Below are positions 11,642 through 61,842 of a stretch of DNA of 64,000 nucleotides, piece by piece. The notes below the pieces were generated by a model. That model made no database searches. It saw only the letters and a list, made by a program, of their open reading frames with translations, and was not told the origin of the DNA. The position numbers and the translations under genes were made by a program. How positions within the stretch are numbered: position 1 is the stretch's first letter; each line of letters starts with the position of its first letter. This DNA comes from an uncultured Alphaproteobacteria bacterium (GTDB lineage: Bacteria > Pseudomonadota > Alphaproteobacteria > Methylaequorales > Methylaequoraceae), in NCBI GenBank assembly GCA_964484795.1, contig CAZAFN010000004.1, positions 13 to 64,012 of the forward strand, given 5' to 3'.

Positions 11642-11920
11642 CTATTTTAGTTTGGTCATTAACTTAAAAATATTCATAAAACCTGTAACAATTCCTAATA
11701 GCAAAAAAATTAAAAAAAATATAGGTTTTGTTAAAAAAATTTTGTCAATTCCTACTCCAATGCAAACTGCTACTATTATTGGAGAAATTAAGTCTAGTGA
11801 AATCTTTAGGCCAGTTCCAAATCCTGAAAGATTTTCTTTGTTTTTTTCAGACTTTATATTCTTTGACTCAATTTTTTTTATTTTTTCAGATAATTTCAAT
11901 GATTTTTTATTTTTCATCAA
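11642..11920 (-). CDS. atpI: AtpI-like F0 operon membrane protein
   Basis: 92 aa with a basic N-terminus and two TM helices. It is the first gene of the F0 operon and overlaps the smc stop. Confidence 0.6.
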   Translation of the reverse strand: MMKNKKSLKLSEKIKKIESKNIKSEKNKENLSGFGTGLKISLDLISPIIVAVCIGVGIDKIFLTKPIFFLIFLLLGIVTGFMNIFKLMTKLK

Positions 11921-17415: not shown

Positions 17416-17741
17416 GATTTTTTTTGTACACAACTTTATTTTTTTTGTTTATACAAACATTGAGTTCTCAGGATAGTTTTTCTAATTTTGAAGAGAGTGA
17501 CCATGAAAAAGCAATTAGAGCAGTTAATGATGGTGAAATATTGCCTTTGAACCAAATACTTAATAGAGTAAGTAGTGAATTTTCTGGAAGAGTAATTTCC
17601 ATAAATCTTAAGGATAATGAAAAGGGACTATTTGGTTGGGTTTACGATATAATGATAATTGACAAAAACAATCAAGTGAAACAACTTAGGGTAGATGCAG
17701 GAACTTCAACAATATTGTCAGTTAAATCGGGGGGTGAATGA
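17412..17741 (+). CDS. PepSY-domain secreted protein
   Basis: 109 aa with a signal peptide and a single PepSY-like fold. It overlaps the start of the response regulator. Confidence 0.6.
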   Translation: MRFFLYTTLFFLFIQTLSSQDSFSNFEESDHEKAIRAVNDGEILPLNQILNRVSSEFSGRVISINLKDNEKGLFGWVYDIMIIDKNNQVKQLRVDAGTSTILSVKSGGE

Positions 17742-18406
17742 TGAGAATACTCGTAGTTGAGGACGATCCAAATTTAAATGATCAAATCAGACAGTCATTA
17801 GAGGATAGTGGCTACTCAGTTGATTCTGCTGCTGATGGTGAAGAGGGACATTTTCTTGGAGATACTGAACCATATGATGCTATTGTTTTAGACTTAGGTT
17901 TACCAAAGGTAGATGGAATTACTGTTTTAGAAAAATGGAGAAAAGAAAAGAAAAACTTCCCTGTTCTCATTTTAACAGCCAGAGATCAGTGGAGTGACAA
18001 GGTTTCTGGTTTTGATGCTGGTGCAGATGATTATGTCACGAAACCATTCCAGATGGAAGAGTTGCTTGCTAGGCTTAGAGCACTGATCAGAAGATCAGCC
18101 GGGCATGCAACTTCAGATATTGAATGCGGTCCTTTAAAAATTGATACTAAGTCTAACAAAGTCTTTTTGAATGGAACAAAACTTAAATTGACATCTCATG
18201 AGTATAAGATAATTGAATATTTTCTTCATCATCAAGATAAGGTGATTACAAGAACGGAATTGGTTGAACATATTTATGACCAAGATTTTGATAGAGATTC
18301 GAATACTATTGAAGTATTTATTGGAAGATTAAGAAAAAAGATGGGAATGGATCTTATTAAGACTGAAAGAGGATATGGTTATAGATTGTCAATAGACAAA
18401 GAATAA
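17738..18406 (+). CDS. OmpR/PhoB-family response regulator
   Basis: 222 aa with a receiver domain (DD..D54..K) and a winged-helix output domain. Confidence 0.85.
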   Translation: MMRILVVEDDPNLNDQIRQSLEDSGYSVDSAADGEEGHFLGDTEPYDAIVLDLGLPKVDGITVLEKWRKEKKNFPVLILTARDQWSDKVSGFDAGADDYVTKPFQMEELLARLRALIRRSAGHATSDIECGPLKIDTKSNKVFLNGTKLKLTSHEYKIIEYFLHHQDKVITRTELVEHIYDQDFDRDSNTIEVFIGRLRKKMGMDLIKTERGYGYRLSIDKE

Positions 18407-18410
18407 AAAA

Positions 18411-19760
18411 ATGAATTCACTAGCAGTCAGACTGTTCTTTAGCGCAACTATTTGGATAATTTTTGCTTTGGTGGCAACTGGAGTTTTTTTATCAGACCTT
18501 AATACAAAATCAAATTTTAAAGCCTTTGATGACAGGCTAAATCTTCATCTTGAAACATTAATAGGTGCTAGTCGAGTGGACTCTTCCGATGGAATTACAG
18601 TAGTTAGTTCAATTGGAGACCCTAGGTTTTTTCAACCTTACTCTGGTTGGTATTGGCAAATTAATAGTGGTGCAAGAACATTGAGTAGATCAAGATCAAT
18701 GTGGGATCAGGTATTTACTTTAGATAAAAGATTAATTGGAGGGCGATCTCAATTTATAGATGCTGCTAGAAATCAAAAAGATGAAAAAAAAATAATAGAA
18801 AAAAAAACCTTGCATATCGTTGAAAGACAGATTTCTTTTCCAGGGATTCCGACACCTTTAAATTTTTTAGTTTCTGGTGATACTAAAGAGTATGAGGAAA
18901 ACATAAAAAAATTTGATAATACTTTGTTTGCAGCTCTCATTGTTCTTGGGGTAGGTCTAATGATCTCAGTTTTTCTTCAGGTTAAATATGGGTTACTTCC
19001 TTTAAATAAAATTAAACATTCATTATTTAAAATTCGTAATGGTGATGAAAAGAAATTGAAAGATCCTTACCCTATGGAAGTGCAACCTCTTGCAACGGAA
19101 ATAAATGATCTCTTGGAGCATAATGAAAAAATTGTTGATAGAGCTAAGACACATGTAGGGAATTTAGCGCATGTTCTAAAAACCCCGCTGGCTGTAATTT
19201 CCAACGAGATAAAAGATGAAAACCAAATTATGGACAGTCAAGTTTCATTAATGAAAAAACATATTGATAGATACCTAAAAAAAGCTTACATAGAGTCCTT
19301 AGGTAAGGTCACAAAAGAAAAAATTAATATTTTTGAACTGACCAGTAAAATGTTGGGAGTTTTTAAAAAATTATATCCGAATATGGAAATTAAATTTGAT
19401 CAGAAAATTACTGATTTATGCGTTTTTAGTAGTTTGGAAGATATGGAGGAGGTGATAGGTAATGTAATAGAGAATGCTTGTAAGTGGGGAAAGAGAAAAA
19501 TTAAAATTAAAGTTGAGAAAAATTCTGAATTTGAAGTTGGGATTTCCATTTCTGACGATGGTCCTGGTCTTCGACCTGAAGAGGTTGAAAAGGTTTTTGC
19601 AAGAGGGTTTAGATTAGATGAGCAAAAACCAGGAACTGGTTTAGGTTTGAATATTGTGAAAGATATTGTTGAAACCCTGAAGGGGAAAGTTTGGTTGAAA
19701 AAATCAAAAATTTTAGGTGGTCTTCAAGTAAATGTTGTTTTACCGATTTCAAGAGTTTAG
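18411..19760 (+). CDS. Sensor histidine kinase (periplasmic sensing domain, HAMP, HisKA, HATPase)
   Basis: 449 aa with two TM helices flanking a roughly 150-aa periplasmic loop. The H-box is LAHVLKTPL, and G1/G2 boxes are present. Confidence 0.85.
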   Translation: MNSLAVRLFFSATIWIIFALVATGVFLSDLNTKSNFKAFDDRLNLHLETLIGASRVDSSDGITVVSSIGDPRFFQPYSGWYWQINSGARTLSRSRSMWDQVFTLDKRLIGGRSQFIDAARNQKDEKKIIEKKTLHIVERQISFPGIPTPLNFLVSGDTKEYEENIKKFDNTLFAALIVLGVGLMISVFLQVKYGLLPLNKIKHSLFKIRNGDEKKLKDPYPMEVQPLATEINDLLEHNEKIVDRAKTHVGNLAHVLKTPLAVISNEIKDENQIMDSQVSLMKKHIDRYLKKAYIESLGKVTKEKINIFELTSKMLGVFKKLYPNMEIKFDQKITDLCVFSSLEDMEEVIGNVIENACKWGKRKIKIKVEKNSEFEVGISISDDGPGLRPEEVEKVFARGFRLDEQKPGTGLGLNIVKDIVETLKGKVWLKKSKILGGLQVNVVLPISRV

Positions 19761-21584: not shown

Positions 21585-23252
21585 ATGGTAAATTTACCAA
21601 AATTATTGTTTGGTCTAGTGGCTTCTTCGTTTTTTGCATTAAATGCTAATGCAGCAGATACGAATGTTTCTCAAGAGATGCTCAGCAGAGCAGATTCTGA
21701 CAGTAGCAATTTTCTGCATACGAATGGTAACTATGAACAAACTCGTTTCTATCCAAATAGCCAGATTAACACGAAAAATGTATCAAAACTTGTGCCGGCT
21801 TGGATTTTCCAAACTGAAGTTGTTGACTCAATGGAAACTTCACCAATTATTGTTAATGGTGTAATGTATGTTTCAACTTCATTTAGTCATGCTTATGCAT
21901 TAGATGCTAAGACTGGTGAAGAAATTTGGCACTACAAACATAAAATGGGTCCAATAACTACTTATTGTTGCGGTCCTAACAACCGTGGAGTTGCAGTGAA
22001 AGACGATAAAGTTTTTCTAGCAACACTTGATGCAAAAGTTGTTGGTTTGAATGCTAAGACAGGAAGAAAACTTTGGGAAACTCAGCTTGCTGATCCAGAG
22101 CTTGGATATTCTGAAACAATGGCTCCTACAGTTGTTGGTAACAAAGTTCTTATTGGTACTAACGGTGGAGAATATGGAATAAGAGGTTTTGTTAAAGCTC
22201 TTGATGCTAATTCTGGAAAGGTCCTGTGGACTTTTTATTCAATTCCAGAAAATTCTGTTGGTGTATGGGAAACACATGATGCAACAGGTCGTGATATGCT
22301 TAGAGACATTAAAGCTGAAAAAGCTGCTCTAAAAAAACTAGGTGATCCATATCAAACACTTGGTGGTGGCGTATGGCAAAACCCAGCAGTAGATGAAGAA
22401 ACTGGAACAGTTTATTTTGTTGTAGGAAACCCATCTCCAGATTTAGATGGTTCAATTAGACCAGGTGACAATCTTTATACAAACTCTGTTGTTGCTGTTG
22501 ATCTTGAAAGTGGTAAATACAAATGCCATTTTCAGTACATCGCTCATGACGTTTGGGATTTAGATGCAGTTTCGCCTGTAATCATAACACCGGTGAAAAA
22601 TAAAGCTGGTAAGACGGTTAAAGGTTTGCTTCATGGTGGTAAAACAGGTCATGTTTATGTTCATGATGCAAAAGATTGTTCTCTAATCCGTTTTTCAGAA
22701 GCAATGGTTCCACAGGAAAATATGTGGGTTCTTCCAACGAAAGCTGGTAAGAGAATGCTTCCTGGTGCAAATGGTGGTGTTGAATGGTCTCCAATGACAG
22801 TTAATCCTAAATTAGGTCTGACCTATGCGATTAATCTTCATCAACCTATGACTTATCATGTTGAAAGCACTCCTTACCCTGGTGGTAAACTTTGGCTTGG
22901 TGGTGCATTCAAAGTAATTCCTGGTGAGCAGCAGTGGGGTAACATTACTGCAGTTGACTACAATACTGGGAAGATTAAGTGGAAAGTTAAAACTGATCAA
23001 CCTATGATTGGTGGAATTTTGGCTACAGCTGGCGGATTAGTATTTGCTGGTGAAGGTAATGGTTGGTTTAGAGCATACGATGCCAAATCAGGATCAAAAT
23101 TATGGCAATTCCAAGCAGGTGCTGGAGTTAACGCTCCTCCATCTTCATTCAGTATTGATGGCGAGCAATATATCGTTGTTGCTGCTGGTGGGAATGTTCA
23201 GCTAAATTATAAGCGTGGTAATAATATCATTGCTTTTAAGCTAGCTAAGTAA
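21585..23252 (+). CDS. PQQ-dependent alcohol (methanol/ethanol family) dehydrogenase, periplasmic; DxD motif suggests a lanthanide-dependent XoxF/PedH/ExaF type
   Basis: 555 aa with a signal peptide ending ANA-AD. It is an eight-bladed propeller quinoprotein with the vicinal disulfide YCCGPNNRG and the catalytic region HDVWDLD (D325 and D327). Confidence 0.9.
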
Positions 23253-23270
23253 TTTAATTTTTCAAAGGAA

Positions 23271-23305
23271 GGGGCTATGAAAATTCTCATAGCCCCTTTT
23301 TTTTT
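23271..23305 (+). terminator. Rho-independent terminator after the PQQ-ADH gene
   Basis: A perfect 10-bp stem (GGGGCTATGA / TCATAGCCCC) with a 6-nt loop, followed by T9. Confidence 0.7.
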
Positions 23306-23310
23306 GTATT

Positions 23311-23880
23311 ATGAATTTCAAAAAGTTAATTTTCTTAATATTTTTTTGTTCTTCCTTAGAACTTTTTTCAGAAGAAATGTCTCAAGAATTAGTGGATGCA
23401 CTTGAAACTTGTAATTCTTGTCATGGCAAGGAAGTGTTGGCTGATAACCCTGAAGTTCCTGTAATTACCGGACAAAGTCTCCAATACATATATCGTCAAT
23501 TGAAAGATTACAAGTCAAATTCTAGAGCACATGAAATAATGTCATCGATGGTTAGTGATTTGGAAAAAAAAATATTACTAGAGTTGGCAACTCATTTCTC
23601 TGAGCAAAAGTGGATAGATTTTAGAACGGATAGAGAATTTGATGAAACACTTGCGTTAGATATGATTGCATCTGGTCAGTGCAGCCAATGCCATGGAACT
23701 TTTAAAGAAAATAATCTTGCTGCACCAAGACTTGCAGGTCAAAAAGAATCTTATCTCATTGCGACAATGACGGCTTTTAAAAAGAGAACTCGTTTGAACG
23801 CACCGGATAAGTCAAGTTTATTTGAAACAATTTCTGAAGAGCAGATCAAGGCTCTTTCAGGTTACATTGCTAACAAATAA
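23311..23880 (+). CDS. Diheme cytochrome c (c4-like), probable electron acceptor of the ADH
   Basis: 189 aa with a signal peptide and two CxxCH motifs (CNSCH, CSQCH). Confidence 0.8.
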   Translation: MNFKKLIFLIFFCSSLELFSEEMSQELVDALETCNSCHGKEVLADNPEVPVITGQSLQYIYRQLKDYKSNSRAHEIMSSMVSDLEKKILLELATHFSEQKWIDFRTDREFDETLALDMIASGQCSQCHGTFKENNLAAPRLAGQKESYLIATMTAFKKRTRLNAPDKSSLFETISEEQIKALSGYIANK

Positions 23881-23884
23881 TTTT

Positions 23885-24859
23885 TCATTCAAGTACGAGT
23901 TTAATTTCTTTACTTTTAGTTAATTCAATGGCTTTTTTGTTTTCATTATTTTTTAAATTCTTGTTTGCTCCAGATTCAACTAAGAACTTTGTTATTTCTA
24001 AACTATTCTGTTTTGCAGCATACATTAAAGCTGACATACCTAGATTGTCTTGATGATCAATTTGAGCATTGTTATCAATCAATACTTGAAGTGTTTTAAC
24101 TGCATCAATTTGAGGCGTATCATCTGTACTTCCAGCAGCCCATATGAGTGGAGTAAGATCATTCCCGTGTTTTTTATTTGCGTCAACTCCATTCTGAATT
24201 AATATTTCAACTATGTCGTAAAATCCTTTTGCAGATGCATAGATTATTGCAGACTTTCCTGTTTCATCAACGGTATTTGGATTAGCATTTTTTTTTAATA
24301 GAAGTTTTACAAAATTTAAATTTCCATTAAATGAAGCTGCAGACAGAGGGGTTTCATTGTCGAGACTTCTAGTGTTTGTGTCAACATTCTTTGATAGAAG
24401 GTATTTTACTATTTTTTTTCTGTTTTTTTTAATTGCTTGAAGCAATGCTGTTTTTCCTCTTAAATTTAGATGCTCAAGATTTGCACCTTTGCTTTCCAAA
24501 AATTTAACTATTTTTAGATGTCCAGATTCTGATGCTCTGATAAGAGGTGTATTTGCAAATTTGTCTCGCGTATTTACAAGCCCTCCTTTTTGAACAATAT
24601 CAAAAACAACTTTGCCGCAGCCCTTTTCACTAGCTTCTAATAATAACAATGAAAGTTCTCTAGCTAATGGATTTTGGCCAAATGCATTTAATTTTTTAAT
24701 GACAGGTCGACATAAATCCTTGTTTTTATCTTTTAATTGATTTTCCTCACTACAAACATTCTTAGAAAACATTAAAATAAAAAACAATAAGGTATAAATT
24801 GTTTTGGTAAATGCTATTCTGAAGCATTGTGAATTTAAACTACTTTTATAATTGGCCAT
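23885..24859 (-). CDS. Exported ankyrin-repeat protein
   Basis: 324 aa with an N-terminal hydrophobic leader then at least six ANK repeats (TPLIRASESGHLKIVKFL, NETPLSAASFNGNLNFVKLLL...). Confidence 0.8.
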   Translation of the reverse strand: MANYKSSLNSQCFRIAFTKTIYTLLFFILMFSKNVCSEENQLKDKNKDLCRPVIKKLNAFGQNPLARELSLLLLEASEKGCGKVVFDIVQKGGLVNTRDKFANTPLIRASESGHLKIVKFLESKGANLEHLNLRGKTALLQAIKKNRKKIVKYLLSKNVDTNTRSLDNETPLSAASFNGNLNFVKLLLKKNANPNTVDETGKSAIIYASAKGFYDIVEILIQNGVDANKKHGNDLTPLIWAAGSTDDTPQIDAVKTLQVLIDNNAQIDHQDNLGMSALMYAAKQNSLEITKFLVESGANKNLKNNENKKAIELTKSKEIKLVLE

Positions 24860-25746
24860 TGAAAAACGTTCTTTCTTTTCTAATTTTTATTTTGGGACCA
24901 GAATATTCATTTTCAAATGAAAATTCAACATATAAACCATCAGGAATTATGGTTTCTGTTGAGACACATAAACTTCATTTTTTGTGCACAGGAAAAGGAA
25001 AAAAAACCTTCATATTAGAAGCAGGTATTGGTGCTAATCATCTTGATTGGTCAAGACTACAACCTAAATTAAGCAAGAAATTTAAAGTTTGCAGTTATGA
25101 TCGTACTGGGTATGGATGGTCAGAGAGAGGACCTAAACCAAGAGATGCGTTAACAATTTCACAAGAACTTTCTCAGGCAATTACTTTTCTCTCACTTTCT
25201 AAACCAATAATTTTTGTTGGGCACTCATTTGGTGGAATAATAGCAATGGTTTTAGGTTCAGAATTTTCCAGGATTATTGATGGTATTGTACTTGTTGATT
25301 CTATGCATCCAGAACAATACGAAAGATTTGAAGAAAATAATATTGATATTCCAGTTGAGCCAACTAGGGCAATCATCTACTCAAGTCCAGATGTTCTTAC
25401 TTATGGGATTCCTGATGAAAAAAAAAAAGAAGCCTATTACTTAGCTAGAACGGAAAAGACTAGATCATTTATGTTTAATGAAATGAGGAATATGAAAAAG
25501 TCATTAAAGCAGGTAAATTTTAAAAAAAAAAATAAAAAATCTTTAGTATTAACTCACTCAAGAAGAGACTGGGATGTCCACTCTATTGATGGAAAGATGG
25601 AAGATGTTTGGTTAGAACTACAAAGTGATTTAGCAAAAAATTTGAATGCGGATTTAATCGTTGTTCCGGATGCTGGTCACCAAATGCAACTTGAAAACTA
25701 TGACTTTATTTATGAAAAGTTGTTAGAATTTTCAGAAAACTTTTAG
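24829..25746 (+). CDS. Alpha/beta-fold hydrolase (esterase/lipase-like)
   Basis: 305 aa with a GHSFGG nucleophile elbow and C-terminal Asp/His (DAGHQ). An N-terminal hydrophobic segment suggests export. Confidence 0.75.
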   Translation: MNLNYFYNWPLKNVLSFLIFILGPEYSFSNENSTYKPSGIMVSVETHKLHFLCTGKGKKTFILEAGIGANHLDWSRLQPKLSKKFKVCSYDRTGYGWSERGPKPRDALTISQELSQAITFLSLSKPIIFVGHSFGGIIAMVLGSEFSRIIDGIVLVDSMHPEQYERFEENNIDIPVEPTRAIIYSSPDVLTYGIPDEKKKEAYYLARTEKTRSFMFNEMRNMKKSLKQVNFKKKNKKSLVLTHSRRDWDVHSIDGKMEDVWLELQSDLAKNLNADLIVVPDAGHQMQLENYDFIYEKLLEFSENF

Positions 25747-25756
25747 TTACTTGAAT

Positions 25757-26950
25757 CTAAAATAGACACTTACTGTCACTGATATCAAATCCAAGTGTAT
25801 CTTCAGCATTTATCTTATGAAGGAATTTCTCATTTGGCATTTTTGTAATTACTGCATTATGGGTAGATAGAAGGATTGGTTGTCTAAGTTGATTGTTCCA
25901 ATTTCTAAAACTACCTACCTTTCCTTTATACATATCTACAGCTAGAGTTTTTTTTTGGAATAGTTTTAGAAAGTTAATTTTTTCATTTTCATCTTTTATC
26001 TTCAGAGATTCAGCAATTATTTTAATTGAAACCCAAGCGGCCCAATCACTATCTTGCATCTTTCTGTCTTTTACTTCCCAGGACAAGTTGTAATCATTTC
26101 TTTGAAATCTTTTATTTAACTGTGGAGCTCCATTTCTTTCCCATGCCCAATGCCAAGCTCTAGGCGTTAGTCCTATGTCTCCAACAACTGGAGTTGGGTA
26201 CATTGTATTAAAAGGAAGATTCCTACTAAATTCACCAAAGTAATCAAAAATCACAATAGTGTCAGATTTTTTTCCCTTGGTTAGTAATTTAGGATTGTTA
26301 GCTTCTCTATCCTCTGGGTTTTTAGATAAAGTAAATTTTCTTTCATTAATAATTTTAAGTTTGTATTTTTTACTTGAATCTAAGAAAGACAAGTATTTGT
26401 TTTGGTCTTCATCTTTTGGCCCGTATAGAACTAATACATTTTTCCAATTTTTTAAAATTAAAAATTGTGCTAATGAATCTGTATACATCTTGTCAGAAGG
26501 AATAATATTAAAAAGGTTTTTTTTACAATTTTTTTCCCTAAAACTATTTTTTGAGATTCTTGCATTAATGAAAGCCAAGCCTTCAGGCAAAATATTAATT
26601 ATTTCTTCCATAATTTTTTCAGGTAGATCTAAAATAGTTATTGAGTTTTTTGGAAAACCCTTTGTCAATTTTGAAAAATCACTTAGATCGTTTATGAAAT
26701 GTTCTTTAAGTACTAATTGAGTTTTTAGTAGGCTTAATTTGACTTTATTTTCTTCAATGCCTGTTAATATTGCTCTGTTTTGAGGATATTTCTTTCCTAA
26801 AATAATTCCAGTATAACCCTTCTTTTCATTGTGATCTTCATCATTTCTAAATTTAATCAAATTGATGTCTACTTTTTTAATATCGTTTTTGGCATTACTA
26901 AAAGAAGTAATTAAAAAAGCAGTAAAGAAAACAAGAAAAAAAAATTTCAT
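25757..26950 (-). CDS. Periplasmic solute-binding protein of the type associated with PQQ-dependent alcohol dehydrogenase systems (Leu/Ile/Val-binding fold)
   Basis: 397 aa with a signal peptide. Its size and context match the 'PQQ-ADH system' SBP family. No cognate permease or ATPase is adjacent. Confidence 0.55.
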   Translation of the reverse strand: MKFFFLVFFTAFLITSFSNAKNDIKKVDINLIKFRNDEDHNEKKGYTGIILGKKYPQNRAILTGIEENKVKLSLLKTQLVLKEHFINDLSDFSKLTKGFPKNSITILDLPEKIMEEIINILPEGLAFINARISKNSFREKNCKKNLFNIIPSDKMYTDSLAQFLILKNWKNVLVLYGPKDEDQNKYLSFLDSSKKYKLKIINERKFTLSKNPEDREANNPKLLTKGKKSDTIVIFDYFGEFSRNLPFNTMYPTPVVGDIGLTPRAWHWAWERNGAPQLNKRFQRNDYNLSWEVKDRKMQDSDWAAWVSIKIIAESLKIKDENEKINFLKLFQKKTLAVDMYKGKVGSFRNWNNQLRQPILLSTHNAVITKMPNEKFLHKINAEDTLGFDISDSKCLF

Positions 26951-27921
26951 TATTCGACTATTAAGATTGCATATGGAGATTCTCCAACTTTAACAGACCG
27001 CAAGACTTTTCTTTTCTTTACATCTATAATTGAAATATCATCGGACATACCGTTTGCAACATAAAGATAATTGTCATTTTTGCTAAGTGCCATTCCCCAT
27101 GCCCGTTTTCCAACGAGAATATAATCTAAGATTTTTCCTGTATCAGGCTCAAAAACACCTACATGATTTGCAATTCCAAGTGCAACAAACCCCAAACTGT
27201 TTGTGCTATTTAATAGAACATCAACTGGTGTTATTTCCTCCTTCTTAAACCCTTTTGGCAAAAAAATTATTGTTTTAATTACTTTGAATGTTTCTGTGCT
27301 AATTATATTGACAATACTACCAAGCTCCGCGGAGACAAATAATTTTTTTCCATCATTAGATAATGCAAAACGTCTTGGTCTCCTGTCTACGGGAATGTTC
27401 TTTTGGATTTTTCCTGATAATAAATTTAGAACATGAACAATATCTGCCACTTCTGATGCTACGAAAGCAAATTTACCGTCTTTGGTTATTTGAACGCCCT
27501 CTGGTTCTTCACCAGTATTGAATTCTTGAAGCAACTTTCCTTCAGCCCAATCCCAGACAGTAGCTGTGGCATCGTCTTCATTAGAAACAACAAGATGTTT
27601 TCCATTGGGATGTAAATCAAATGTTTCCGGGGATAAAACATTTCTTATCCTACCTACTACTTCTAAGGAATTAGTATCATAAAAAAGTATTAAATCATCA
27701 TCAGCACAACCAACAAAAAAATATTTCTTGTCTTTTGAGAAGTGCATTCCTCTTGGTCTTCCACAGGTTCCTAGTTCCTGAATTAATTCTCCTTCTTTCG
27801 AAAGTATACTAAGGCTATTACTTCTTTCATTAGAAACTATTATTTTCTCCGAAAAAGCATTTGAATTAGATGTAGAAAGAATTGTAATAGCAAAGAGTAG
27901 AAATTTTAATTTTTTTTTCAT
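26950..27921 (-). CDS. YVTN-family beta-propeller protein (PQQ-dependent-catabolism-associated type)
   Basis: 323 aa with a signal peptide and repeated blades of DGK-x-FV/YV-xN. Its stop is adjacent to the start of the SBP gene. Confidence 0.75.
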   Translation of the reverse strand: MKKKLKFLLFAITILSTSNSNAFSEKIIVSNERSNSLSILSKEGELIQELGTCGRPRGMHFSKDKKYFFVGCADDDLILFYDTNSLEVVGRIRNVLSPETFDLHPNGKHLVVSNEDDATATVWDWAEGKLLQEFNTGEEPEGVQITKDGKFAFVASEVADIVHVLNLLSGKIQKNIPVDRRPRRFALSNDGKKLFVSAELGSIVNIISTETFKVIKTIIFLPKGFKKEEITPVDVLLNSTNSLGFVALGIANHVGVFEPDTGKILDYILVGKRAWGMALSKNDNYLYVANGMSDDISIIDVKKRKVLRSVKVGESPYAILIVE

Positions 27922-27956: not shown

Positions 27957-28481
27957 TTATTTTTCATCTAATCTTGGAATTAATTCAACTAGGTTGCAAG
28001 GTTTTGTTCTAGAGTCTAACTGGAATTTTAAAATCCCATCCCAAGCGTCTTTGCAAGCACCAGGTGACCCAGGTACTGAAAAAATGAACTTATCTTTTGC
28101 AACTCCAGCTATTGCTCTGGATTGTAAAGATGATGTGCCAATTTTTTTAAAACTTATATATCTGAATAATTCACCAAACCCAGTAATTTCCTTTGTAATT
28201 ATTTTTTTGACAGCCTCTGGAGTTGAATCTCTCCCTGTCAAACCAGTTCCTCCTGTTAAAATAATGGCATTAACGTTTTTAAATTTGAGGGATTTTTTTA
28301 AATAATCTTGAATTAAAACCTTGTCATCTTTTAAAAAAACTTTTTTAAACAATTTGTGTCCGGATTCAAATATTCTTTTTTCTAAAACCTTGCCAGATTT
28401 GTCTGACATCTCATTCCTTGTATCCGAAATGACTAATAATAAAATACTTAATTTTTGGAATTTTGCAGTGTTTTTTTTCAT
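27957..28481 (-). CDS. moaB: Molybdenum cofactor biosynthesis protein MoaB/MogA family
   Basis: 174 aa with the GGTGLTGRD motif of the MoCF_biosynth fold. Confidence 0.8.
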   Translation of the reverse strand: MKKNTAKFQKLSILLLVISDTRNEMSDKSGKVLEKRIFESGHKLFKKVFLKDDKVLIQDYLKKSLKFKNVNAIILTGGTGLTGRDSTPEAVKKIITKEITGFGELFRYISFKKIGTSSLQSRAIAGVAKDKFIFSVPGSPGACKDAWDGILKFQLDSRTKPCNLVELIPRLDEK

Positions 28482-58537: not shown

Positions 58538-59410
58538 ATGCAAATGGTCCCTTTTGATAAACGAGATGGTGTTATTTGGTTGAATGGCTCATATAGAGAA
58601 TGGAATGAAACCAAAATTCACGTTTTAAACCATGGTCTTCACTATGGGAGTTGTGTGTTTGAGGGTTTGCGAATATATAATGGAAAAATTTTTAAACTTG
58701 ACGAGCATATTGCTAGACTTTTTGAATCTGCCAAAATTTTAGATTTAACAATTCCGTTTTCTACTAAGGAAATAAAAAAAATTACCAATGAGATTACTTG
58801 TAAACAGAATATTTTAAATGGTTATATTAGGCCAGTAGTTTGGAGAGGCAGTGAAATGATGGCAATTTCAGCAAAAAAAGGTAGTACTAATGTTGCTATA
58901 GCTGCATGGACATGGCCGTCATACTTTTCAGAAGATAGATTGTTAAAAGGGATTAAACTGACAGTTTCAAAATGGGTTAGACCATCTCCTAATTCAGCTC
59001 CGACGAATAGTAAGGCGTCAGGGCTTTATATGATTTGTTCCTTGAGCAAACATCTTGCTGAGTCTAGTGGTTTTGACGATGCATTAATGCTTGATTATAG
59101 AAACTACATTGCAGAATCTACAGGTGCAAACATTTTTTTTGTAAAAGATCAGGAACTTTTTACACCAATTCCTGATTGTTTTCTTAATGGAATAACTAGA
59201 CAAACTGTCATAGATATTGCCAAGATGCAAAATATAAATGTCAATGAAGGACATTTCAAAACTAATTTTTTATCCGAATGTGATGAAGCATTTTTAACTG
59301 GAACAGCTGTAGAAATCACCCCGATTTCATCAATTGACAAATATTCCTTTGAAGTAGGGAAAATAACTAAATTATTAATGAATCAATTCAAGAAGATTGT
59401 TAATTTATGA
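58538..59410 (+). CDS. ilvE: Branched-chain amino acid aminotransferase (fold type IV)
   Basis: 290 aa with an ARLFESAK region holding the PLP-binding Lys, and a C-terminal GTAVEITP. Confidence 0.85.
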   Translation: MQMVPFDKRDGVIWLNGSYREWNETKIHVLNHGLHYGSCVFEGLRIYNGKIFKLDEHIARLFESAKILDLTIPFSTKEIKKITNEITCKQNILNGYIRPVVWRGSEMMAISAKKGSTNVAIAAWTWPSYFSEDRLLKGIKLTVSKWVRPSPNSAPTNSKASGLYMICSLSKHLAESSGFDDALMLDYRNYIAESTGANIFFVKDQELFTPIPDCFLNGITRQTVIDIAKMQNINVNEGHFKTNFLSECDEAFLTGTAVEITPISSIDKYSFEVGKITKLLMNQFKKIVNL

Positions 59411-59854
59411 ATTTTTTATTTTTTTCATATCTTCTTGGGTCTGTTCAACCCAATGAGATTTATTTTTAAAGTTCTCTTTTTTCCAAAAAGTAATTTTAAT
59501 TTTTAACCAATCCACAACTGTTTCTATGAAAAAATAACTATCTTTTCTGTGTTTGCTTGCAACTAATAATAAAACTATATTCTCACCAGGAAATAAGTTT
59601 CCAAATCTATGCAATAGAAGATAATCATCAAAAAAACATTTTTTTTTTAGTTTGGTAATTATTTTTTTTGTTTGAGTAAAAGCCATTTTTTTATAATATT
59701 CTATATCTATACTTTCGATAGTCTTGCCATCACTTGATGGTTTAACCTTTCCCAGAAAAACCATAATAGATCCTGATTTAAAGTTTTTTTTTGAAAATAA
59801 ACTTAACTCTTTTTCTGCATTAAAATCTTCTTCTTGAAATCTAATTTTCATCAT
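59405..59854 (-). CDS. moaE: Molybdopterin synthase catalytic subunit
   Basis: 149 aa MoaE-like protein. Confidence 0.75.
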   Translation of the reverse strand: MMKIRFQEEDFNAEKELSLFSKKNFKSGSIMVFLGKVKPSSDGKTIESIDIEYYKKMAFTQTKKIITKLKKKCFFDDYLLLHRFGNLFPGENIVLLLVASKHRKDSYFFIETVVDWLKIKITFWKKENFKNKSHWVEQTQEDMKKIKNS

Positions 59855-60099
59855 CCACCCGTTACTGGTGGAAAGAATGCAACTTCATCACCATCTGTTA
59901 CAAATCTGTCAAAATCAGCATATTCACAATTAATAGCGCATTTCAAATTTTTAGTATTTTCAAAAGCTTTTTTGTATAGATTGTTTTTCTGTTTAAGTTG
60001 ATTGATAATTTCTTTTATTTTAATTTTACCTTTTATTTTTATAGTTTCTTCACTCTTTCCAATGGTTTGTTTTAGTTTTGCAAAGTATAATATTTTCAA
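59851..60099 (-). CDS. moaD: Molybdopterin synthase sulfur-carrier subunit
   Basis: 82 aa ubiquitin-like protein ending in Gly-Gly (PPVTGG). It overlaps moaE. Confidence 0.7.
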   Translation of the reverse strand: MKILYFAKLKQTIGKSEETIKIKGKIKIKEIINQLKQKNNLYKKAFENTKNLKCAINCEYADFDRFVTDGDEVAFFPPVTGG

Positions 60100-61337
60100 T
60101 TTAACATATCCTCGTATCTGAAAAATTTAAGCAAAGTTCCCTTTGAAACATTTGTTTTTTTTTCATCTATTTCAATGATTCCATCACTTTGACTTATTGA
60201 TGAGATTATTCCTGAACCAGTTGTATTAAATTTTTCAAGAACTTGCTTGTTTTTTTCTAATTTTATGGATCCTCGTAACCATTCTCTTCTACCAATTTTT
60301 TTTTTCATTGAAAAATTGGCAGGTAAGATTCTTTCTATTATTTCATTTTTTTTTATTCCAGATAATTTTTTAATATAATCAATTACCAACATAAAAAAAG
60401 TCACTATAACAGCCACTGGGTTGCCTGGAAGTCCGATAAAAGGCTTGCCTTTTATCATTCCAAATGCAAATGGTCTGCCGGGTTTGATTGCTAATCTCCA
60501 AAAAGCGATTTTTCCACACTTCCTAAGTGTTTTGCCAATTTTATCCATCTTACTTTGGGAAACTCCACCACTTGTTAAAATTAAATCATATTTTTCAGCA
60601 CATTTTAAAATTTTACTCTTTGACTCATTAAAGTCATCTTTTATTATACCAAGATCAAATGAATCGCATCCAATTCTCTTGATCAAATTAAGTAAAGATA
60701 TTTTGTTAGAATCATATATGTCGAATTCTTTTTTTTTAGAGTTTGCTAATTCATTGCCTGATGAAAAAACACCTACCTTTAGTTTTTTTAGTACTTTTAT
60801 TTTTTTTAGGCCTAATGATGATAATTGTGAAAGATCAACTGAACGAATTTTTTTTCCCTTTTTAAATGCAACTTTATTTTTTTTAATGTCTTCTCCTCTA
60901 AGTCTTATATTTGAACCTTTTTTTGGTATTCTAATGATTTGAATATGATTGCCAGAAATTTTACAATTTTCTTCCATACAAACAGTATCAATCTTACTGT
61001 CCTTAAAATCAAAAATATATGCTCCAGTATAGATTCTTATGGCTTCCTTTTCTTTTAATCTGCCCAAAAATGGTTTTCCTGGGAAAGATTCTCCAATAAT
61101 TTTAAATTTTTTTGTTTTCTCACCCAGTGACTTGTGAGTAAAAGCGTATCCATCGACTGCAGCATTATGGTGCTCAGGAATATTAAATTTTGCATATATA
61201 TTTTCCGCTAAAACTCTTCCTTCACATTGATTGATTCCAATGGTTTCTGTCTGGATTATTCTTTTAGCATTTCTAAGCATTATCTTTCTTGCTTGATTAA
61301 CAGAAATTAGTTTTTCATTTGTGCTAAATTTTTCCAT
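60096..61337 (-). CDS. moeA: Molybdopterin molybdotransferase
   Basis: 413 aa with a central MoCF-binding domain (LTSGGVS) and a GLPGNPVA motif. Confidence 0.85.
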   Translation of the reverse strand: MEKFSTNEKLISVNQARKIMLRNAKRIIQTETIGINQCEGRVLAENIYAKFNIPEHHNAAVDGYAFTHKSLGEKTKKFKIIGESFPGKPFLGRLKEKEAIRIYTGAYIFDFKDSKIDTVCMEENCKISGNHIQIIRIPKKGSNIRLRGEDIKKNKVAFKKGKKIRSVDLSQLSSLGLKKIKVLKKLKVGVFSSGNELANSKKKEFDIYDSNKISLLNLIKRIGCDSFDLGIIKDDFNESKSKILKCAEKYDLILTSGGVSQSKMDKIGKTLRKCGKIAFWRLAIKPGRPFAFGMIKGKPFIGLPGNPVAVIVTFFMLVIDYIKKLSGIKKNEIIERILPANFSMKKKIGRREWLRGSIKLEKNKQVLEKFNTTGSGIISSISQSDGIIEIDEKKTNVSKGTLLKFFRYEDMLN

Positions 61338-61842
61338 TTTTTGTATAATCTAATATGAAGTCAGCTATTTTTCTTGTTTCATTAAATTTAAATTTTGGCA
61401 AATCTATTTTAGATAGTTTTGTGAAAATTTCATCAAAGACTATAGCCTTGATATAGTCATCATTTTCACATATTAATGGTTTTGAATTTTTTTTTCTAAC
61501 AACTTCCAATTTAGGTGTTTTGTTATGCTTTAAACCTTCTACAAGGATTACATCAGTTTTTTTTGAAATTTTTTTTATAATTTCATCAAATCTAATTTTT
61601 TTTGTTTGCAATGCACTAATTTGAGCCCATTTTTTTTCGTTGAAAATTATTACTTCATTTGAACCTGATTGTAGATGCTTAAAACTATCTTTGCCTTTTT
61701 TATCTATTTCAAATGTGTGATGTGAATGTTTTATTGATGAAACACAAATTTTTTTTTTTGTTAAGTATTTTATTATTCTGCAAGTTAGATCAGTTTTTCC
61801 ACTGCCACTCCACCCAACAATTCCAAAGACTTTATTATTCAT
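61324..61842 (-). CDS. mobB: Molybdopterin-guanine dinucleotide biosynthesis adapter MobB
   Basis: P-loop GWSGSGKT. 172 aa. Confidence 0.8.
   Translation of the reverse strand: MNNKVFGIVGWSGSGKTDLTCRIIKYLTKKKICVSSIKHSHHTFEIDKKGKDSFKHLQSGSNEVIIFNEKKWAQISALQTKKIRFDEIIKKISKKTDVILVEGLKHNKTPKLEVVRKKNSKPLICENDDYIKAIVFDEIFTKLSKIDLPKFKFNETRKIADFILDYTKNGKI

Follow-up and report, generated by a model that had tools for sequence, protein, structure and literature searches.

Quinoprotein Dehydrogenase Gene and Its Product

The window analysed in this study, a stretch of 64,000 nucleotides from contig CAZAFN010000004.1 (assembly GCA_964484795.1) of an uncultured alphaproteobacterium, contains the gene of a pyrroloquinoline quinone (PQQ)-dependent dehydrogenase of 555 amino acids (positions 21585..23252, forward strand), which was recognised by its open reading frame (ORF) and by matches to protein profiles and to structures in the PDB. 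The enzyme is referred to below as ADH (alcohol dehydrogenase). Downstream of it lie genes for a secreted dihaem cytochrome c, an ankyrin-repeat protein, an alpha/beta-hydrolase, a periplasmic substrate-binding protein (SBP), and a YVTN beta-propeller protein. The central result is that the four predicted metal ligands of ADH occupy the columns of the ligands of the lanthanide enzyme PedH and are invariant in the clade to which ADH belongs. To judge by these residues, the metal site is of the lanthanide type, and ADH is probably a lanthanide enzyme.

In profile searches, the protein scored 266 bits with PF01011 (cut-off 26.7) and 469 bits with TIGR03075, over the full length of the latter model and narrowly under its cut-off of 480.05. 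Among sequences of solved structures, the best match was PedH (4.7e-84, 286 bits), followed by ExaA (1.1e-81, 278 bits), ADH-IIB (1.2e-78, 268 bits), XoxF5 (1e-74, 255 bits), and XoxF2 (4.8e-64). By these matches, ADH is assigned to the PQQ-dependent dehydrogenases of the methanol/ethanol type. Only propeller families were matched, and no CxxCH motif or extra domain was found in the 555 residues, which indicates a quinoprotein without a fused cytochrome or haem domain. The hydrophobic N-terminus with its AxA site (residues 1–23, ...ALNANA followed by AD; positions 21585..21653, forward strand), as read from the sequence, looks like a Sec signal peptide, the removal of which would place Asp325 and Asp327 of the precursor at about 302 and 304 of the mature protein.

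The structure of ADH was modelled with AlphaFold2 from a shallow alignment of 29 sequences, the members of which were at least 78% identical (pTM 0.72; mean predicted local distance difference test score, pLDDT, 63). A Foldseek search with this model returned the eight-bladed PQQ propeller, with PedH ranked first (template modelling score, TM, 0.74). Structures of PedH, XoxF, methanol dehydrogenase (MDH), and ADH-II fell at TM 0.70–0.76, a range that covers nearly all MDH/ADH structures; the fold search confirms the global fold only and does not separate lanthanide from calcium structures.

Predicted Metal Site

The motif HDVWDLD (residues 321–327, positions 22545..22565; all coordinates in this section are on the forward strand) is encoded by the codons cat gac gtt tgg gat tta gat, in frame with the ADH ORF. 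It includes the catalytic base Asp325 (22557-22559), in the column of PedH Asp323, and, two residues further on (+2), the extra Asp327 (22563-22565), in the column of PedH Asp325, which is the lanthanide-ligand position. The other two predicted ligands, identified from the alignments, are Glu196 (22170..22172), equivalent to PedH Glu199 and preceded by Gly as in PedH and XoxF, and Asn282 (22428..22430), equivalent to PedH Asn281; both are invariant in the clade. The published metal ligands of PedH are Glu199, Asn281, Asp323, and Asp325 (PMC11845868). Renumbering of the PedH chain from the HMMER alignment reproduced these four positions exactly, and Glu196, Asn282, Asp325, and Asp327 of ADH sit in the same four columns.

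The first-pass annotation of this DNA had read the motif as HDVWDLD with Asp325 and Asp327 of the precursor and had placed the second Asp at the lanthanide-coordinating position. The residue numbers proved exact (the segment 22548-22565 covers D322–D327), and the placement is borne out, as the alignment with PedH and XoxF5 is gap-free and the HMMER alignments to solved structures show no indel near the motif that could have shifted it. The aligned segments read hdgWDfDgvn in PedH, hdeWDyDgin in XoxF5 (6DAM), ndaWDfSgnn in ExaA, and gdsWDfTatq in ADH-IIB; thus, the column of Asp327 holds Asp in PedH (6ZCV/6ZCW) and XoxF5 (6DAM), Ser in ExaA, and Thr in ADH-IIB. The metals in the reference structures are Pr in 6ZCW, La in 6DAM, and Ca in 1FLG and 1KV9 (Table S1, PMC11996626). 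According to the published rule, Asp at +2 denotes a lanthanide enzyme, and Ala, Ser, or Thr a calcium enzyme (SI Fig. S1, PMC11996626); by this rule, ADH is classed as lanthanide-type. The same position holds Ser in PedE and Asp in PedH, and the latter is inactive without rare-earth metals (PMC5487730).

A vicinal pair, Cys128-Cys129 (21966..21971), lies in the segment YCCGPNNRG (residues 127–135, nt 21963-21989) and is invariant in the clade. The segment also includes Arg134, the conserved PQQ-contact Arg, which is kept in 107/112 sequences. Asp325, Cys128-Cys129, Arg134, and the stacking Trp264 all align with the PDB references in HMMER. The first-pass annotation had described the disulfide as a neighbour of the DxD motif, which is true of the folded protein and not of the sequence, where YCCGPNNRG lies about 196 residues upstream. 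It had also taken the disulfide as confirmation of a type-I ADH active site. The Cys-Cys pair is not specific to type-I ADHs, as it is also present in MDH, in type-II enzymes, and in 73/101 diverse relatives, and the type-I label itself was overstated: in the tree described below, ADH falls outside the ExaA/PedH group and is type-I-like in domain architecture only.

Clade, Conservation, and Phylogenetic Position

More than 588 relatives of ADH were found in GTDB species-representative genomes, a set that does not include the genome of the window itself; the best 80 of them were 73–81% identical to ADH. Among these 80, Alphaproteobacteria are represented by Hyphomicrobium, Alsobacter, Tistlia, Microvirga, Salipiger, Oricola, Kiloniellaceae, and others, and Gammaproteobacteria by Litorivicinus, Granulosicoccus, and Marinobacterium. 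Plasmid or chromid copies occur in Alloyangia (76%) and in the Betaproteobacteria Ideonella, Paraburkholderia, and Caballeronia (63–69%), and members of the clade are present in the Tara and JGI marine data. Outside the clade, identity drops abruptly to 47% or less.

Within the clade, the metal-ligand and PQQ-contact residues do not vary. The octapeptide AHDVWDLD was identical in 120/120 best database homologues (78–100% identity), and the ligand columns read E-N-D-D in 6/6 orthologues aligned from their genome loci. In the 29-sequence clade alignment, the four ligands, Cys128-Cys129, Arg134, Trp264, Lys353, and Trp401 were invariant.

A rough neighbour-joining tree of 515 columns, which included partial reference sequences, placed the clade as a tight group on a long stem, apart from the XoxF, PedH/ExaA, and ADH-IIB references. 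ExaA and PedH grouped with representative P0245, and the ADH clade was located elsewhere. On this tree, ADH is neither a member of the ExaA/PedH clade nor a XoxF, and belongs to a separate clade. The sister of the clade was a single sequence, P0121, a representative of a 50%-identity cluster (574 aa, 59% identical to ADH). Its ligands are degenerate (D-G-G-D, with Glu replaced by Asp, Asn by Gly, and the catalytic Asp by Gly), and the +2 Asp and the Cys-Cys pair are kept; with such residues, it may be a paralogue that has lost catalysis or taken on another role.

The RefSeq name of the Alloyangia orthologue is only "PQQ-binding-like beta-propeller repeat protein," and such generic naming of clade members follows from the TIGR03075 score, which misses the cut-off. 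Orthologues in metagenome-assembled genomes (MAGs) and in Alloyangia bear this name or even that of the "BamB family." Surveys of PQQ dehydrogenases by product name can therefore miss the clade. A plasmid gene of M. aquaticum, a candidate for the "type 6a" Adh6, carries WDWA (Ala at +2) and was left aside as a reference.

A MAG contig of 30% GC content (GCA_036337355.1, hereafter L083) is syntenic with the window over at least 18 genes. ADH was 90% identical to its orthologue there (L083 10001-11668) and ranked second of the 18 syntenic genes (range 55–95%), with only a response regulator more conserved. The codon differences between the two ADH genes comprised 201 synonymous and 54 non-synonymous changes. 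By these comparisons, the ADH gene is functional and under strong constraint by purifying selection. The module stands in the backbone of the chromosome, and its inheritance has been vertical at least as far as the window and L083 are concerned.

The degree of conservation is unusual. Against the 90% of ADH, identities between the window and L083 were 63% for ThrC, 62% for SMC, and 55% for MutY. Across the proteobacterial classes, ADH retained 73–81% identity, and its partner proteins only 35–52%. This pattern points either to extreme constraint or to frequent horizontal transfer, the latter in view of the plasmid and chromid copies in Alloyangia and Paraburkholderia.

Genes Adjoining the Dehydrogenase

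Gene neighbourhoods were counted around the best 80 of the relatives (loci L001–L080). The gene directly downstream of ADH encodes a secreted dihaem cytochrome c (23311..23880, forward strand) with CNSCH at residue 34 and CSQCH at residue 124; it matched PF00034, PF13442, and, weakly, PdsA. A dihaem cytochrome c gene was found directly downstream of the dehydrogenase in 80/80 loci, with two CxxCH motifs in 73/76. From this constant gene order, the cytochrome is likely to be the electron acceptor of ADH. Between the stop codon of ADH and the start of the cytochrome gene, which are 58 nt apart, there is a strong GC-rich hairpin followed by a T-run (23264..23303, forward strand; 17-bp stem, -24.7 kcal/mol, z = -5.4). 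In L083, a hairpin of different sequence with a T-run stands at the same place (~11690-11720, z = -3.7). The recurrence suggests that a terminator, attenuator, or mRNA stabiliser has been conserved here, which would uncouple the expression levels of ADH and the cytochrome. In this AT-rich DNA, promoter-like matches (20) were not above the number expected from shuffled sequence (15 ± 4). A two-component pair upstream (17738-19760) was considered as a lanthanide sensor and rejected, since it is not conserved near ADH (response regulator 2/80, histidine kinase 0/80).

Convergent with the cytochrome gene lies the gene of an ankyrin-repeat protein (23885..24859, reverse strand; Ank_2 7.6e-42) with a signal-like hydrophobic N-terminus. 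An ankyrin-repeat gene occupied the same position in 74/80 loci, with the N-terminal hydrophobic run in 48/60, and the annotation of Alloyangia pacifica shows the same gene order. In the literature searched, no mention of ankyrin paired with PQQ-ADH or lanthanide terms was found. The protein may be a maturation or docking factor. The next gene encodes an alpha/beta-hydrolase (24829..25746, forward strand; PF00561), which appears to be a lineage-specific passenger, as it was present in 7/80 loci; the L083 copy is 75% identical. Its ORF opens with GTG and shares 31 nt (24829-24859) with the 5' end of the divergent ankyrin gene; translation probably begins further downstream.

The hydrolase gene is followed by two genes on the reverse strand. 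The first encodes a periplasmic SBP of the ATP-binding cassette (ABC) family associated with PQQ-ADH systems, of the PedA1/LutA type (25757..26950, reverse strand; TIGR03863, 3.7e-87, 292.6 bits, under the cut-off of 413.6). The second encodes a YVTN beta-propeller protein of the PedA2 type (26950..27921, reverse strand; TIGR03866, 288.8 bits against a cut-off of 287.3), which is probably equivalent to LutB. Among the 80 loci, the TIGR03863-like SBP was found in 51 and the YVTN propeller (TIGR03866, ~52% identity) in 55; the ABC ATPase (TIGR03864) was found in 28 and the permease (TIGR03861, "PedC") in 27. These four families correspond to PedA1 (SBP), PedA2 (YVTN propeller), PedB, and PedC. 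In P. putida, PedA1A2BC, of which PedA2 is a YVTN propeller, is required for La-dependent growth and is homologous to Lut of M. extorquens (PMC6839425), where mutation of lutA or lutB impairs growth on methanol with La (PMC7391723). By analogy with these systems, the SBP/YVTN neighbourhood supports a link with lanthanides, and it is not decisive. Beside the orthologue, pqqE was present in 14/80 loci, pqqC in 13/80, pqqB in 12/80, and pqqD in 9/80, which ties the clade to PQQ. The window and L083 keep only the periplasmic SBP and the YVTN propeller of the Ped/Lut-type system.

Molybdenum cofactor genes are scattered in the window. A moaB gene (27957-28481, reverse strand) adjoins the ADH module and also follows the module in L083, and moaE, moeA, and mobB stand further on (59405-59854 and 60096-61842, both reverse strand), with no evident link to ADH.

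Host Genome Context

The window has a GC content of about 30%. Its housekeeping genes include coxA-ctaB-ctaG-coxC-SURF1-thrC, atpB with two b-type ATP synthase subunits, SMC, and the bc1 complex, an arrangement that was read as typical of Alphaproteobacteria. Threonine synthase (ThrC) had one match of 82% identity; its other matches were at 64% or lower, and those that bore a name were MAGs labelled Pseudomonadota, Rickettsiales, or Alphaproteobacteria. The host probably belongs to an uncultured, streamlined marine lineage. Tetrahydromethanopterin (H4MPT) genes, formaldehyde-oxidation genes, and a "methylotrophy island" of the TMED127 type were not found in the 64-kb window, and neither was an aldehyde dehydrogenase. 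TMED127/"Clade X" was considered as the host group and is unsupported, as the methylotrophy-island genes of that group are not in the window.

Metal Preference and Rival Explanations

The first-pass annotation held that the DxD motif points to a lanthanide-dependent enzyme. The site is indeed lanthanide-type at the sequence level, but the diagnostic weight given to the motif was overstated, and several other observations also weigh against a lanthanide enzyme. In a diversity alignment of ADH with 100 full-length representatives of 50%-identity clusters (101 sequences), Asp stood at +2 in 92/101, which makes it a weak discriminator; the remaining sequences had Thr (3), Ser (2), Gly (2), Glu (1), and Ala (1). 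In this alignment, Asp is the default +2 state of the superfamily, and calcium-type residues characterise a few derived groups, that of ADH-IIB among them. The count agrees with a survey in which 61% of 6,328 PQQ dehydrogenases of marine origin carried the motif, as did the majority of members in 14/17 families (PMC11996626). The vicinal Cys-Cys pair was common in the same alignment, as given above. The membrane glucose dehydrogenase (m-GDH) of E. coli is reported to have the motif and yet to depend on Ca or Mg (PMC11996626); because of this enzyme, the motif is not proof of lanthanide dependence. At the level of sequence, then, the extra Asp predicts lanthanide binding and does not establish dependence.

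The residues before and at the Glu ligand are GGE in PedH, XoxF, and ADH, and GAE or GDE in ADH-IIB and ExaA; the Gly was considered as a second lanthanide marker and was rejected, since across the family it is uncoupled from the +2 residue (65/88 vs. 4/8). In the AlphaFold2 model, pLDDT was below 50 in every active-site loop (125–132, 196–198, 283–298, 319–327), which makes the model unusable for the geometry of the metal site. Neither the 64-kb window nor L083 was found to contain the ABC ATPase, the permease, pqq genes, a TonB-dependent receptor, or lanmodulin. The ped cluster of P. putida also holds the calcium enzyme PedE, so adjacency of Ped-type genes does not specify the metal. Finally, the literature searched included no member of the ADH clade among biochemically characterised enzymes.

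The most serious competitor of the lanthanide reading, though clearly the less probable of the two, is a working PQQ dehydrogenase with Ca2+ or Mg2+ as its metal in vivo, or with no strict metal preference, in which Asp327 would be an ancestral residue that does not make the enzyme lanthanide-dependent, as has been proposed for m-GDH. The prevalence of DxD among diverse relatives, including m-GDH-like sequences with HHD[IL]WDYD, is as this explanation would have it, and so is the reported case of E. coli m-GDH, classed as Ca/Mg-dependent in spite of the motif (PMC11996626). Seawater offers Ca at ~1e-2 M and lanthanides at ~1e-11 M, and membrane components of a lanthanide transporter were not found in the 64 kb, nor were the receptor and lanmodulin mentioned above. 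However, m-GDH has an unusually large site (PMC11996626) and is a different, membrane-anchored family. All structurally characterised enzymes of the MDH/ADH type with Asp bind lanthanides, and those of the calcium type all have Ala, Ser, or Thr (PMC11996626). The lack of PedH activity without rare-earth metals (PMC5487730) and the PedA1/PedA2-type genes that adjoin ADH also speak against a calcium or magnesium enzyme.

A XoxF-type lanthanide methanol dehydrogenase in a methylotrophic host would have the DxD motif in common with ADH, the matches to the XoxF5 (1e-74) and XoxF2 (4.8e-64) structures are strong, and marine low-GC Alphaproteobacteria with highly expressed xoxF5 are known (PMC12542740). 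The position of the clade apart from the XoxF reference in the neighbour-joining tree makes this very improbable, as does the bit score, which is lower for XoxF (255) than for PedH (286), ExaA (278), and ADH-IIB (268). Furthermore, the partner of ADH is a dihaem cytochrome rather than a monohaem cL-type XoxG, no neighbour matched the MxaJ/XoxJ family, and, unlike the TMED127 "methylotrophy island," the window yielded no H4MPT, formaldehyde-oxidation, or lut genes. Least probable of all is a catalytically dead or "empty" quinoprotein-like propeller with no PQQ or metal bound. A partial match to the "acido-empty-quinoprotein" model TIGR04528 (318 bits against a cut-off of 650), the degenerate D-G-G-D ligands of the 59%-identical sister sequence P0121, and the merely generic RefSeq name could be cited in its favour, but the ligands, the catalytic Asp, the Cys-Cys pair, and the PQQ-contact residues of ADH are intact and invariant, the gene is under strong purifying selection, pqq genes are adjacent in 9–14 loci, and a cytochrome c gene is always downstream.

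Proposed Function and Significance

Under the favoured lanthanide reading, ADH would be a secreted eight-bladed PQQ quinoprotein in which a trivalent light lanthanide is held by Glu196, Asn282, Asp325, Asp327, and PQQ. The lanthanide would act as a Lewis acid and Asp325 as the catalytic base at PQQ in the oxidation of an alcohol or, possibly, an aldehyde. The periplasmic dihaem cytochrome c encoded alongside would take up the electrons from reduced PQQ and feed them into the respiratory chain.

A more far-reaching and rather doubtful proposal is that the clade, together with its linked dihaem cytochrome c and secreted ankyrin protein, amounts to a separate periplasmic lanthanide-quinoprotein system that has gone unrecognised until now and acts on a substrate of its own, and that the module has been reduced to the enzyme, the SBP, and the YVTN propeller in this 30%-GC marine lineage. 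Since no membrane parts of the transporter and no pqq genes lie nearby, PQQ would in that case be scavenged and the lanthanide handed over to the enzyme in the periplasm. A maturation or docking role, loosely like that of MxaJ/XoxJ in the methanol systems, would fall to the ankyrin protein.

Biochemically confirmed lanthanide enzymes are limited to XoxF1/2/4/5 and ADH type 2b (PMC11996626). If the lanthanide reading is true, the clade would join this short list, and a marine bacterium with a small, low-GC genome would invest in rare-earth-dependent alcohol oxidation despite picomolar lanthanides in seawater. Members of the clade are spread widely over marine and soil Alpha-, Beta-, and Gammaproteobacteria, show exceptional conservation, and are abundant in ocean metagenomes. 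The lanthanide prediction as such will not surprise specialists, as thousands of marine sequences have already been classified by the DxD rule, and most of them have the motif; the more original points are the clade-specific partners and the unusual conservation of ADH.

Comparison With Known Systems

The closest characterised counterparts of ADH are PedH and ExaF, lanthanide-dependent type-I ethanol dehydrogenases (Keltjens type 2b; 6ZCV/6ZCW), PedH being the best match in both sequence (4.7e-84) and fold (TM 0.74). In common with them, ADH is predicted to be a soluble eight-bladed PQQ propeller of the periplasm that lacks a haem domain, and it has the E/N/D/D ligands, the vicinal Cys-Cys pair, the Gly before the Glu ligand, and PedA1/PedA2-type genes nearby. 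It differs from them in belonging to a separate clade, with identities of ~35–45% over aligned columns to all PDB reference groups (29–30% to PedH in Foldseek), and in its shorter length (555 aa vs. about 590–600). Compared with PedH, ADH has Lys353 in place of Arg, Glu400 in place of Asn, and Ile475 in place of Trp. A further difference concerns the partners: PedF/ExaB is a monohaem c550, whereas ADH is accompanied by a dihaem cytochrome c and a conserved ankyrin-repeat neighbour.

With XoxF (6DAM, 4MAE, 6OC5, 7O6Z), ADH shares the fold, the four ligands including the extra Asp, the WD-x-D motif, and the Cys-Cys pair. Unlike XoxF, it lies outside the XoxF group in the tree and has no XoxJ/XoxG-type neighbour, and there are no methylotrophy genes in the window. 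The lanthanide-type PQQ dehydrogenases predicted from ocean metagenomes (Voutsinos et al. 2025, PMC11996626) were assigned by the same rule of inference as applied here.

The type II quinohaemoprotein ADHs (Keltjens type 4; 1KV9, 1YIQ, 1KB0) are also similar (1.2e-78), the whole propeller being alignable in one stretch, and they share with ADH a Lys at the Arg/Lys PQQ-contact position. In contrast to ADH, these enzymes have Thr at +2, Ca, and a fused C-terminal cytochrome c domain, whereas in ADH the +2 residue is Asp and the cytochrome is separate and dihaem.

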